Shown piece after piece: positions 63,580 through 63,777 of a DNA stretch of 64,000 nt. The notes under the pieces are model-generated. The model was not told where the DNA came from. It saw nothing but the letters and a program-made list of their open reading frames with translations, and did not search any database. Position numbers and translations under genes: made by a program. Source of the stretch: an uncultured Ignavibacteria bacterium (GTDB lineage: Bacteria > Zixibacteria > MSB-5A5 > RBG-16-43-9); NCBI GenBank assembly GCA_964511075.1, contig CAZEDM010000010.1, positions 25,507 through 89,506 of the forward strand. The letters are read 5' to 3'. Position 1 is the stretch's first letter, and each line of letters opens with the position of its first letter.

Positions 63580-63777
63580 TTATGGTCCAGGAGGAGGGAA
63601 AGTCGGACAGGGGTGGCATTCATCCCAACAGATGATAGGTGGGGTTACCGTGCAAACCCTGTAACAGCACAGGCGGGCTCCATCAGTAGTAGGGGTTTTA
63701 ATCACGGTGAATCCCAAGACTAAGATGAGCATCGCAAAGAGAAGCACAAAAACTCTGAGTTTTCTGAAAAGCTTCAC
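63580..63777 (-). CDS. Cys-rich Pro-rich small secreted/membrane-anchored peptide (65 aa)
   Basis: GTG start preceded by a strong SD (gaAAGGAGGTGagagaag GTG). An N-terminal hydrophobic helix is followed by CCYRVCTVTPPIICWDECHPCPTFPPPGP (7 Cys). Confidence 0.5.
   Translation of the reverse strand: MKLFRKLRVFVLLFAMLILVLGFTVIKTPTTDGARLCCYRVCTVTPPIICWDECHPCPTFPPPGP

Follow-up and report, generated by a model that had tools for sequence, protein, structure and literature searches.

A conserved family of small Cys-rich peptides encoded behind a ResA/TlpA-like redoxin in Zixibacteria

What is the function of a 65-residue Cys-rich peptide whose gene lies directly behind that of a thioredoxin-fold protein? 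The question is raised by positions 63,580 to 63,777 of a 64,000-nucleotide stretch of DNA (here called the window; contig CAZEDM010000010.1, positions 25,507 to 89,506, assembly GCA_964511075.1) from an uncultured bacterium that is labeled Ignavibacteria and placed by GTDB in the Zixibacteria. A preliminary description of this stretch, made from the letters alone, had pointed to a small exported peptide between two redoxin genes and suggested a bacteriocin or a product like a ribosomally synthesized peptide that is then post-translationally modified (RiPP), a metal-binding peptide, or a redox substrate or regulator. We find that the peptide gene is genuine, that it belongs to a family of more than 100 homologues, and that in Zixibacteria it is always accompanied by the redoxin gene upstream of it. 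The explanation that we favor is a Sec-exported, disulfide-stapled hairpin peptide that has a private redoxin as its folding catalyst; taken as a whole, we give this explanation an even chance of being correct. The coordinates of all features are collected in Table 1.

The peptide gene and its homologues

On the minus strand the open reading frame (ORF) has 65 codons and translates to MKLFRKLRVFVLLFAMLILVLGFTVIKTPTTDGARLCCYRVCTVTPPIICWDECHPCPTFPPPGP. The minus strand just 5' of the gene reads TAG-AAAGGAGGTGAGAGAAG-GTG. The stop codon of the upstream redoxin gene and the peptide start are separated by 17 nt, and the GGAGG core of the Shine-Dalgarno sequence (SD) ends 9 nt ahead of the GTG. The GTG-started 65-residue ORF with a strong SD that had been described is therefore what the DNA encodes. 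The Cys count given with it was wrong: instead of seven Cys in 25 residues, the peptide has six (C37, C38, C42, C50, C54 and C57) within 21 residues. Among the paralogue types discussed below it belongs to type A (RLCCYRVC...CWDEC.PCP), of which the window has this one copy.

A word-indexed search of 5.8 billion proteins returned 10 homologues with E-values from 3e-29 to 2e-9 and identities of 53-78%. A first profile search of 1.84 billion cluster representatives gave 31 matches, 27 of which were true members with lengths of 57-93 amino acids (aa). The second profile search gave 95 clusters, which brings the family to more than 100 homologues overall. Matches to three proteins of 1937-3386 aa (P0018, P0028 and P0037) were sums of weak repeat matches in large surface proteins and were rejected once the sequences had been read; at least two of these proteins carry what we take to be C-terminal sorting domains of the gliding-motility/type IX secretion system (T9SS) type. 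A 240-aa repeat protein from the profile search (P0041) was also judged unrelated on reading its sequence.

That the peptide is unannotated, as first stated, is correct for the whole family. Its members are named "hypothetical protein" in their sources, except for one evidently mistaken JGI label (HdeD/DUF308). The Cys-rich part has no match in Pfam, NCBIfam or a PDB sequence search, and when the window peptide and other members of the family (19 for NCBIfam, 85 for Pfam) were run against these models, nothing beyond sub-threshold matches to the transmembrane (TM) or signal segment was obtained. No tblastn match to the family was found in plasmid and phage collections. The peptide family is previously undescribed.

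Among orthologues of the window copy, the ratio of nonsynonymous to synonymous divergence (dN/dS) is 0.11-0.31, at a dS of ~0.7-1.8 or at saturation. Thus it is the protein itself that is selected, and not the DNA alone, and the ORF is a genuine conserved gene under purifying selection. The two halves of the gene were also compared for type-A orthologues from the window and from the related loci L003, L006, L016, L017, L025 and L013. In most comparisons, synonymous divergence (pS) was 0.34-0.54 for the signal-coding half and thus below the 0.51-0.89 of the core-coding half; the most diverged pairs did not differ in this way. The lower values suggest either gene conversion among paralogues or a constraint at the mRNA level near the start.

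Table 1. Coordinates of the peptide gene, its predicted parts, the flanking genes and the related elements (window numbering unless a locus is named)
Feature	Position	Strand	Remark
Peptide gene, 65-aa pre-peptide	63580..63777	-	GTG start, TAA stop
Residues 1-34, predicted Sec-type signal peptide	63676..63777	-	AlphaFold2 helix 2-27 and family A/V-x-A pattern
Residues 35-65, predicted mature Cys-rich core RLCCYRVCTVTPPIICWDECHPCPTFPPPGP	63583..63675	-	6 Cys, predicted hairpin, Pro-rich tail
Shine-Dalgarno sequence AAGGAGGTG	63785..63793	-	7 nt 5' of GTG, within the 17-nt gap after the redoxin stop
Partner redoxin, 3' end (~67 codons and stop)	63795..64000	-	ends at window edge; orthologues 190-197 aa
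3'-untranslated region (3'-UTR) motif AGGAGGAAGTGCAAAAA	63544..63560	-	between stop and hairpin; alignment of 27 3'-UTRs
Terminator-type hairpin TTGGGCGAGTAAGGAATTGCTCGCCCAA then TTTTTT	63504..63537	-	12-bp G+C-rich stem, T6
Downstream ResA/TlpA-like redoxin (WCPSC)	62827..63324	-	lipoprotein-like N-terminus ..LTALYSAC
Conserved block beyond the second redoxin	59987-62759	-	PLP enzyme, DUF123, DUF362
Redoxin leader region	L001 ~9130-9400; L009 ~9135-9400; L013 ~7600-7868; L021 ~5730-6000		
Hairpin copies	L001 10255; L003 10236, 10552; L006 10241; L009 10557; L013 9256/9572/9910		
AAATTTAGAATGTAAAGTT motif sites	L016 ~7095; L021 ~7455; L025 ~7140; L049 ~1670; L003 ~10262; L013 ~9600		
Peptidase and MacB/FtsX neighbor sites	L074 95-2770, 6746-10195; L011 3759-5480; L013 1592-3319, 16044-19871; L072 1-2003; L073 846-2132		

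Redoxin genes, peptide arrays and orphan copies

The window ends within the upstream redoxin gene. The encoded fragment gives sub-threshold ResA-like matches in Pfam and NCBIfam (ResA 7e-9) and is 60-72% identical to full-length orthologues, which have an N-terminal TM anchor (KTQLWSIILIVLVVVMGVEILLLV on inspection of the sequences), a linker, and a thioredoxin fold with C-P-S-C and a cis-Pro motif (VIPQT). A profile built from the orthologues matches Bacillus subtilis ResA (1e-15) and StoA (2e-15) in the PDB and a streptococcal "thioredoxin signature protein" at 1e-6. The active site reads (A/T/S/D)C(P/S)SC in all six aligned orthologues, and distant relatives have CSSC, CSYC or CHSC. Both neighbors of the peptide had been given the active site WCPSC. 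This is true of the downstream gene (WATWCPSCKED), but the active site of the upstream gene lies beyond the window and in its orthologues takes the broader form given above. That both flanking genes encode thioredoxin-fold proteins is supported by AhpC-TSA/Redoxin matches for each, and inspection suggests that both products are extracytoplasmic, the upstream one by its TM segment and the downstream one by its LYSAC end.

In all six of the metagenomic homologue contexts first examined, an AhpC-TSA/Redoxin gene of 190-197 aa lies directly upstream of the peptide gene. The gap between the two is 5-17 nt in five of these six contexts and in most loci, and in L038 the genes overlap. A scan for the redoxin, with one genome per species, identified 12 orthologous loci (64-79% identity), of which seven are labeled Candidatus Zixiibacteriota or Zixibacteria (the complete chromosome OY970208.1 among them), four "uncultured Ignavibacteria" and one "Terriglobales". 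L023 turned out to be a contig already seen as L011, and the contig of L019 ends at the redoxin. Among the 11 distinct genome-derived loci with contig downstream, every one has between one and six peptide genes right behind the redoxin, and nine loci of a metagenome scan have the redoxin-then-peptide order. The remaining matches in the redoxin scan were weak, came from methanogens only and had no peptide gene. In Zixibacteria, the linkage of redoxin and peptide is obligatory. Judged by sequence, the upstream redoxin is an orthologous group of its own that is restricted to Zixibacteria and always has peptide genes behind it. Thus, of the two redoxins that had been called dedicated to the peptide, the upstream one deserves the term, since it precedes the peptide gene or genes in every examinable Zixibacteria locus, and the downstream one does not.

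The redoxin gene has a long 5' leader, with a canonical TTGACA-17-TATAAT promoter ~230-270 nt 5' of the redoxin start in most loci. In four loci this leader includes a small ORF of ~22-33 aa that is conserved as protein (..VDAxGxNYxDxIPAV...MLRKY-stop) and in L001 was annotated as a gene of 33 aa (9208-9309). Its product could be a leader peptide with a regulatory role. For the 5' leader, Rfam returned nothing.

The downstream redoxin matches Pfam AhpC-TSA (7e-27) and Redoxin (7e-23) and the NCBIfam ResA model at 6.5e-32, which is under that model's own cut-off. Its orthologues have 167 aa, and the mechanically called ORF of 215 aa (from ATG 63474) is over-extended. The true start is probably TTG 63324 and not ATG 63474; the TTG has AAGGAG 11 nt upstream and yields MKKLILICLLILTALYSACGK..., a lipoprotein-like start. 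With this start, ~255 nt of non-coding DNA (including 63325-63474) lie between the peptide gene and the downstream redoxin, which is a separate transcription unit behind a terminator and not a conserved partner. It is absent from L001, L009, L011 and L013 and present only in the window's subclade. Therefore, the description of the peptide gene as sandwiched between two redoxin genes is accurate for the window, but as a statement about the family it amounts to clade-level synteny only.

The order of genes in the window is common to L003, L005, L006, L016, L020, L025 and L026, with ~64-86% protein identity: redoxin-1, peptide(s), redoxin-2, a Cys/Met pyridoxal phosphate (PLP) enzyme, DUF123, DUF362 and EamA. 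By this synteny the window belongs to a relative of the Zixibacteria. In the window, the block beyond the second redoxin encodes the Cys/Met PLP enzyme (400 aa), a GIY-YIG-like DUF123 protein (127 aa) and a DUF362 protein of 395 aa that has a 2x[4Fe-4S] insert; sulfur- and Fe-S-related genes thus adjoin the thiol-redox genes. No tRNA genes were found in the window, and an exact-sequence search of the public assemblies gave no entry for the window peptide or for the DUF123 protein. Loci labeled "uncultured Ignavibacteria" (L016, L021, L022 and L023) and "Terriglobales" (L026) carry the Zixibacteria-type redoxin-peptide module, and in L016 and L026 the genes farther downstream also follow the order of the window, with ~64-84% protein identity. 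These contigs have probably been given the wrong taxonomic label or been placed in the wrong bin.

Behind the redoxin of Zixibacteria, the peptide gene occurs as one to six tandem paralogues, with six each in L013, L021 and L022. Seven sequence types (A-G) recur across genomes and have 4, 6, 7 or 9 Cys. In the L013 array, most copies are preceded by an SD of their own of the AAAGGAGGTGA type, and AAAGGAGGTGA is also contained in the window's SD. The spacers of this array are ~125-395 nt long, and the sole extra ORF called there overlaps a paralogue in another frame. We rejected an integron-cassette reading of the arrays, which contain only paralogues and whose hairpin is unlike an attC site. 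The array member at L013 8729-8956 (identical in L014) has no ATG, GTG or TTG start, begins ATT CAG TTT.. and ends in a long C-terminal extension that is not conserved; this copy may be a pseudogene or may start at a non-canonical codon. In L046, the peptide copy at 5961-6152 is broken by ambiguous assembly bases.

Behind most of the peptide genes in the Zixibacteria arrays there is a hairpin of the form GGGCGAGCAA-N(2-7)-TTGCTCGCCC. In the window, its stem (63537-63510 of the minus strand) lies 43 nt past the peptide stop, and the 3' region of the gene folds at -28.5 kcal/mol (z = -4.3 versus shuffles). The element is single copy in the 64 kb: GCGAG-N(4-14)-CTCGC occurs twice, once in this hairpin and once in an unrelated match at 29617. 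In addition to the copies listed in Table 1, the hairpin is found in L016, L021, L022, L025, L049 and others. Comparison of 27 distinct copies from 19 loci shows an essentially invariant stem and a variable loop, and three copies have a compensatory change in the top pair from GCAA/TTGC to GCAG/CTGC (A-U to G-C). This conservation of the stem is seen despite saturated synonymous sites in the adjacent genes. Hairpins inside arrays often lack a T-run, and some of them may be stabilizer or processing hairpins instead of terminators. Two shorter motifs accompany the hairpin. The 3'-UTR motif ahead of it has the consensus AGGAGCRCAGAAA in relatives, and spacers inside arrays share AAATTTAGAATGTAAAGTT or close variants just behind it, which may be a promoter element for separate transcription of each paralogue. 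In Rfam, neither the window nor 8 related loci had a match at the gathering threshold, and what matched around the gene was noise.

The family extends beyond these arrays. Its ancestral type (RCCWVMVC...CWEECRxCPKFP) is found beside the redoxin in further contigs that look like Zixibacteria (L037 and L038) and, according to the metagenome scan and additional look-ups, also as single orphan genes amid unrelated neighbors. Among the sources of orphan copies are high-GC soil contigs, including one from a metagenome-assembled genome of the Acidobacteriota (Polarisedimenticolaceae), and contigs of lower GC (L039/L040, for instance). The 5 kb around the orphan copies examined contain no thioredoxin-fold gene. 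A 234-aa protein encoded directly upstream of the L070 orphan was considered as a divergent redoxin and rejected, as it lacks a CxxC as well as thioredoxin features and has no match in Pfam. In other lineages, orphan copies could be served by the housekeeping Dsb systems of the cell.

Signal peptide, fold and proposed function

The exported, signal-bearing nature of the peptide that had been proposed agrees with the family alignment. The N-termini of 113 members run from a basic n-region through an ~18-residue hydrophobic stretch to A/V-x-A and then (A)(R/K)CC. Ala is found at position -3 from the first Cys (which would be -1 from the cleavage site) in 88 of the 113 members, and Ala or Val at position -5 (cleavage position -3) in 87. 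In the window peptide the signal comprises an n-region rich in K/R, a hydrophobic helix of ~18 residues and a c-region that ends in ..TTDGA; signal peptidase I is predicted to cut after G33 or A34. From this pattern we infer that the peptide is exported and its signal cleaved.

There is another way to read the N-terminus. The peptide could be an uncleaved single-pass membrane microprotein (N-in, C-out) that serves as a subunit or regulator of the redoxin, which is itself membrane-anchored. Within Zixibacteria the ~18-residue hydrophobic segment is unusually conserved, with G22 and F23 invariant in the first 11 sequences, and the low synonymous divergence of the signal-coding half relative to the core points the same way. 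The TTDGA cleavage site of the window is also less canonical than the family norm. However, outside the array-bearing clade of the window the hydrophobic stretch varies freely while the A/V-x-A next to the core is retained. Because the one diverges and the other stays, a cleaved Sec signal peptide is the better interpretation. Orphan copies without a redoxin exist as well, and up to six paralogues per single redoxin are not what is expected of a stoichiometric subunit. We consider an uncleaved anchor very unlikely. A type IV prepilin site at G-F-T-V-L was also considered and rejected: the hydrophobic stretch precedes the Gly instead of following it, and there is no Glu at +5.

Cleavage of the predicted signal would release a mature peptide of ~27-31 aa with the family consensus (A)(R/K)CCWVMVC-T-x-x-P-P-x-x-CWEECRxCPxFP. 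The predicted mature peptides have a mean length of ~29 residues and contain 21% Cys, 18% Pro and 6.6% Trp; their net charge averages +0.4 (range -5 to +3) and is ~0 for the window copy. Co-conservation of the Cys spacing, which the preliminary description had named as a check, is evident. Exactly six Cys are present in 104 of 113 members, and the spacing CC-x4-C-x7-C-x3-C-x2-C is dominant (64 members). A further 20 members have a 4-residue loop in a spacing otherwise like the dominant one, and 8 share the window-type spacing CC-x3-C-x7-C-x3-C-x2-C. In the family alignment (window numbering), C37, C42, C50 and C54 are invariant and W51, C57 and P58 almost so. A CxxxCH heme-binding motif (C50-C54-H55) was discarded, since H55 is unconserved and is R in most members.

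AlphaFold2, run with an 85-sequence alignment, gave a predicted local distance difference test score (pLDDT) that averages 85 overall and 95 over the block of residues 41-50. For the window peptide it predicts a helix at residues 2-27 and a beta-hairpin with strands 36-42 and 50-56 and the loop TVTPPII; for a short-loop relative of the acidobacterial type, the same hairpin is predicted at 37-44/47-54. In the modeled strand register, C42 faces C50 and C38 faces C54, and C37 and C57 remain as the third pair. From this register we propose a ladder of two disulfides (C42-C50 and C38-C54) plus C37-C57. The pairing is supported by three observations: (i) a 4-Cys paralogue type retains the exact ladder C-x3-C-x7-C-x3-C, (ii) P0024 has lost one Cys of the CC pair along with the last Cys and (iii) variants with CC-x5-C, and thus a first strand one residue longer, tend to end C-x4-C. 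The peptide is in this sense a predicted disulfide-laddered two-stranded hairpin.

Such a fold could also belong to a conserved mini-protein of the envelope that binds or inhibits a partner, be it as a protease inhibitor with a canonical loop or as a ligand for some conserved protein of the periplasm or outer membrane. The interacting surface would be either the loop C-T-x-x-P-P-x-x-C or the conserved hairpin face, which consists of W, V, M / W, E, E, R, along with CPxFP. This disulfide-closed loop of 9 residues, which has Thr after the first Cys and a Pro-Pro, recalls the CTKSxPPxC of Bowman-Birk/SFTI-1 inhibitors. Moreover, the mature sequence (CCWVMVC, CWEECRxCPKFP) is very strongly kept across phyla and GC contents, and most members outside Zixibacteria are single-copy orphans. 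Peptidases are encoded near some copies (two S8 in L074, M6 in L011 and L013, S9 and M29 in L006), but peptidase genes are common and their proximity is unconserved. The resemblance to Bowman-Birk inhibitors fails in its register, C-T-P1-S-x-P-P-x-C, because the Pro-Pro of the family comes one position earlier. In 20 of the 113 members a 4-residue turn replaces the 7-residue loop, and therefore the loop is not the conserved functional element. The expansion to as many as six diverged paralogues is also left unexplained by an inhibitor, a function that we regard as quite unlikely.

Two kinds of neighbors were seen near several family members without being conserved. MacB/FtsX-type ABC genes are immediately upstream of the peptide gene in L072/L073, and in L013 they are ~6 kb downstream of it; secreted peptidases with T9SS sorting tails (S8 and M6) lie near several members. 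Their relevance is to outer-membrane export and to the inhibitor hypothesis, respectively.

Are the Cys modified by dedicated enzymes? A RiPP-like product had been among the first suggestions, and a precursor whose Cys are converted (to thioethers, thiooxazoles and so on) by enzymes encoded elsewhere in the genome would be consistent with the leader-like conserved N-terminus and the variable Cys-rich cores in tandem. The bufferins are a precedent for RiPP precursors with a Sec signal (PMC11626156). The loci do not support this suggestion. In the Pfam-annotated loci L001-L014 and L069-L076, no radical-SAM, MNIO/DUF692, DUF2063, YcaO or LanB/C/M gene was found within 5-10 kb, and none of these loci has a C39 peptidase-domain ABC exporter or an immunity gene. 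The RiPP-precursor models of NCBIfam do not match the window peptide and give TM-type noise only with 19 members, and the core is predicted to fold alone as a compact hairpin. A RiPP is, in our view, highly improbable. Since no RiPP enzyme, C39 exporter or immunity gene is linked to the peptide, an unmodified Sec-exported peptide with the redoxin as its sole helper is the simplest model.

In the model that we favor, Sec would export the pre-peptide and signal peptidase I would trim it to a mature peptide of ~31 residues, which would fold as a two-stranded beta-hairpin stapled by cross-strand disulfides. The upstream gene of the same operon would provide a membrane-anchored, outward-facing CxxC protein of the ResA/TlpA-like kind as the private thiol-disulfide exchange catalyst of the peptide. 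Most likely the redoxin would form or proofread the disulfides of the peptide, in a lineage that possibly has no general Dsb machinery; that the reaction runs in the direction of disulfide formation is our interpretation. In Zixibacteria the module has grown into arrays of up to six diverged paralogues with SDs of their own, most of them followed by a stabilizer/terminator hairpin. High expression is implied by the SDs of their own and by the conserved hairpins behind most paralogues. By analogy, the best fit may be an effector peptide, either released or periplasmic, that resembles unmodified bacteriocins with disulfides, a role that we put forward tentatively and hold to be possible but less than probable. 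Extended further, these genes would represent the first peptide-effector system of the Zixibacteria: a new class of unmodified, Sec-exported, triple-disulfide hairpins of up to six conserved paralogue types per genome, with private oxidative folding, hairpin-aided expression, action on other cells or on a conserved target in the envelope, and related orphans in Acidobacteriota and other soil lineages. This larger picture is speculative, and we think it somewhat unlikely to hold in full.

Several points weigh against this model. The closest characterized relatives of the redoxin, ResA, StoA and TlpA, are reductants and not oxidases, and neither a re-oxidizing partner (DsbB or VKOR) nor an electron donor (CcdA or DsbD) was found at any examined locus. 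Counts of 7 or 9 Cys occur in several conserved paralogue types, and an odd count is not explained by pure disulfide pairing. The mature peptides are near neutral (+0.4) and hydrophobic, unlike cationic antimicrobial hairpins. No immunity gene is linked to the peptides in the annotated loci, and no outer-membrane export system is consistently linked. Finally, conservation of the mature sequence is strong even between phyla, and outside Zixibacteria most members are single orphans amid unrelated neighbors, so that a housekeeping-like binding function fits as well as a toxin.

Because the redoxin relatives are reductants and several paralogues have an odd number of Cys, a thiol or metal buffer must also be considered. 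In such a periplasmic metal/redox buffer, similar to a metallothionein or a sacrificial antioxidant, the Cys would stay reduced so as to take up Cu(I), Zn, Cd or other soft metals or to scavenge oxidants, the redoxin would be the reductase that maintains or restores the thiols, and tandem amplification would raise the capacity. The match of the redoxin to the reductants ResA (1e-15) and StoA (2e-15) fits this proposal. So does the Cys content of the mature peptide, as do paralogue types C, F and G, in which 7-9 Cys are arranged in CxCxC/CC motifs and odd counts are kept across genomes. Bufferins, which are Sec-exported, Cys-containing periplasmic copper-binding peptides, set a precedent (PMC11626156). 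Genes related to metals are sporadic neighbors (Fur and TonB receptors in L011, Fur-Feo in L003 and L006, cation efflux in L013), and a MopE Cu-binding domain adjoins L069. However, these metal-related neighbors are unconserved, and the loci show no consistent link to a metal-sensing regulator, a riboswitch or CcdA/DsbD. In the form that is both ancestral and dominant, the Cys number exactly six and oppose each other in a confidently predicted hairpin. For a metallothionein-like peptide speak the 21% Cys and the CxCxC/CC motifs of types C, F and G; against it speak the Trp content of 6.6%, the export signal and the dominant six-Cys hairpin, and a composition rich in Trp, Val and Pro is unlike that of metallothioneins. 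There are also no conserved His or Met binding motifs, H55 of the window being replaced by R as noted above. We judge a buffer function to be unlikely.

Significance and comparison with known systems

Small genes such as these are routinely missed or left "hypothetical", and here a coherent six-Cys family is absent from Pfam, NCBIfam and the PDB. Its clear genetic partner makes two ideas testable: (i) disulfide formation or editing in exported peptides of anaerobic bacteria of the Fibrobacterota-Chlorobiota-Bacteroidota (FCB) group and (ii) the use of ResA/TlpA-type proteins, classically reductants, as dedicated folding catalysts. If bioactive, the peptides would be compact, synthesizable, disulfide-stapled scaffolds from a phylum without cultured members. 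The near-invariant 3'-UTR hairpin is a handle for the study of gene expression in Zixibacteria.

Sec-dependent class II bacteriocins exist, and bacteriocin loci are the first comparison to be made. Bacteroidetocin loci, from the same FCB superphylum, encode a thiol oxidoreductase of their own and have no immunity gene (PMC6671954); the authors argue that Bacteroides has no general disulfide machinery and hence needs an oxidoreductase encoded at the locus (PMC6671954). Like these class IIf bacteriocins, the peptides of Zixibacteria are small ribosomal Cys peptides encoded beside a dedicated thiol oxidoreductase that would make their disulfides; one locus can hold several peptide genes, and there is no immunity gene. 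Unlike them, they have a Sec-type signal, no linked peptidase-domain exporter, six Cys in ~30 aa and a ResA-like, TM-anchored redoxin, whereas bacteroidetocins have double-glycine leaders, a C39-peptidase ABC exporter, a 5-TM protein and 4 Cys in 42 aa. There is no sequence similarity between the two.

Thiol-disulfide oxidoreductases (TDORs) are also present in class II bacteriocin loci (PMC10059821), and SdbA is a disulfide-forming enzyme of the thioredoxin family (PMC5112981). The Gram-positive class II loci (PedC of pediocin PA-1, blp/thermophilin, SdbA of Streptococcus gordonii) share with the present ones a membrane-anchored CxxC protein of the thioredoxin family, which in the known loci serves to form the disulfides of small secreted peptides. 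They also hold immunity, transporter and quorum-sensing genes and encode cationic peptides, none of which was seen here. Thus, of the class II-type features, the family has the small signal-bearing peptide with conserved Cys; a TDOR at the locus is present in Zixibacteria and absent beside orphans; and a linked immunity gene and/or C39 ABC transporter is lacking in the annotated loci.

The ST toxins of Escherichia coli use the housekeeping DsbA and are found in enteric pathogens, mostly on plasmids. STa and STII resemble the family in having a pre-peptide with a Sec signal, a very small product and 2-3 periplasmic disulfides, and the MacB/FtsX genes near L072/L073 and in L013 recall the route of STII through Sec, then DsbA, then MacAB-TolC (PMC5985334). 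They differ in that they have no sequence similarity to the family, for which plasmid and phage matches are lacking.

Tachyplesin, gomesin and protegrin are disulfide-laddered beta-hairpin antimicrobial peptides of animals, and the present hairpin resembles them in that both of its predicted strands have Cys at i/i+4. The ladder C-x3-C...C-x3-C of tachyplesin and gomesin is mirrored by the 4-Cys paralogues and by C38/C42/C50/C54 of the window peptide. The animal peptides are strongly cationic and amphipathic, whereas the family has a charge around zero (the strong positive charge of cationic hairpin antimicrobials is absent, with a mean of +0.4 and ~0 in the window), a proposed third disulfide, a Pro-rich tail and a longer loop.

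The flanking redoxin genes resemble ResA, StoA and TlpA in their thioredoxin fold, CxxC, cis-Pro and N-terminal anchor or lipoprotein signal, and ResA and StoA are the best PDB matches. The known proteins of this kind reduce apocytochrome c, spore-cortex proteins or Sco/CoxB, and the upstream redoxin differs from them as a group restricted to Zixibacteria. With bufferins the family shares a Sec signal on a small Cys-containing periplasmic peptide, and the BufA2 class likewise has six conserved Cys (PMC11626156). Bufferins are defined by MNIO (DUF692), DUF2063 and thiooxazoles (PMC11626156); these genes are absent from the annotated loci, and the cores are unrelated. The architecture of the Zixibacteria module, in which a secreted disulfide peptide is combined with a private oxidoreductase, is a variant of a known theme.

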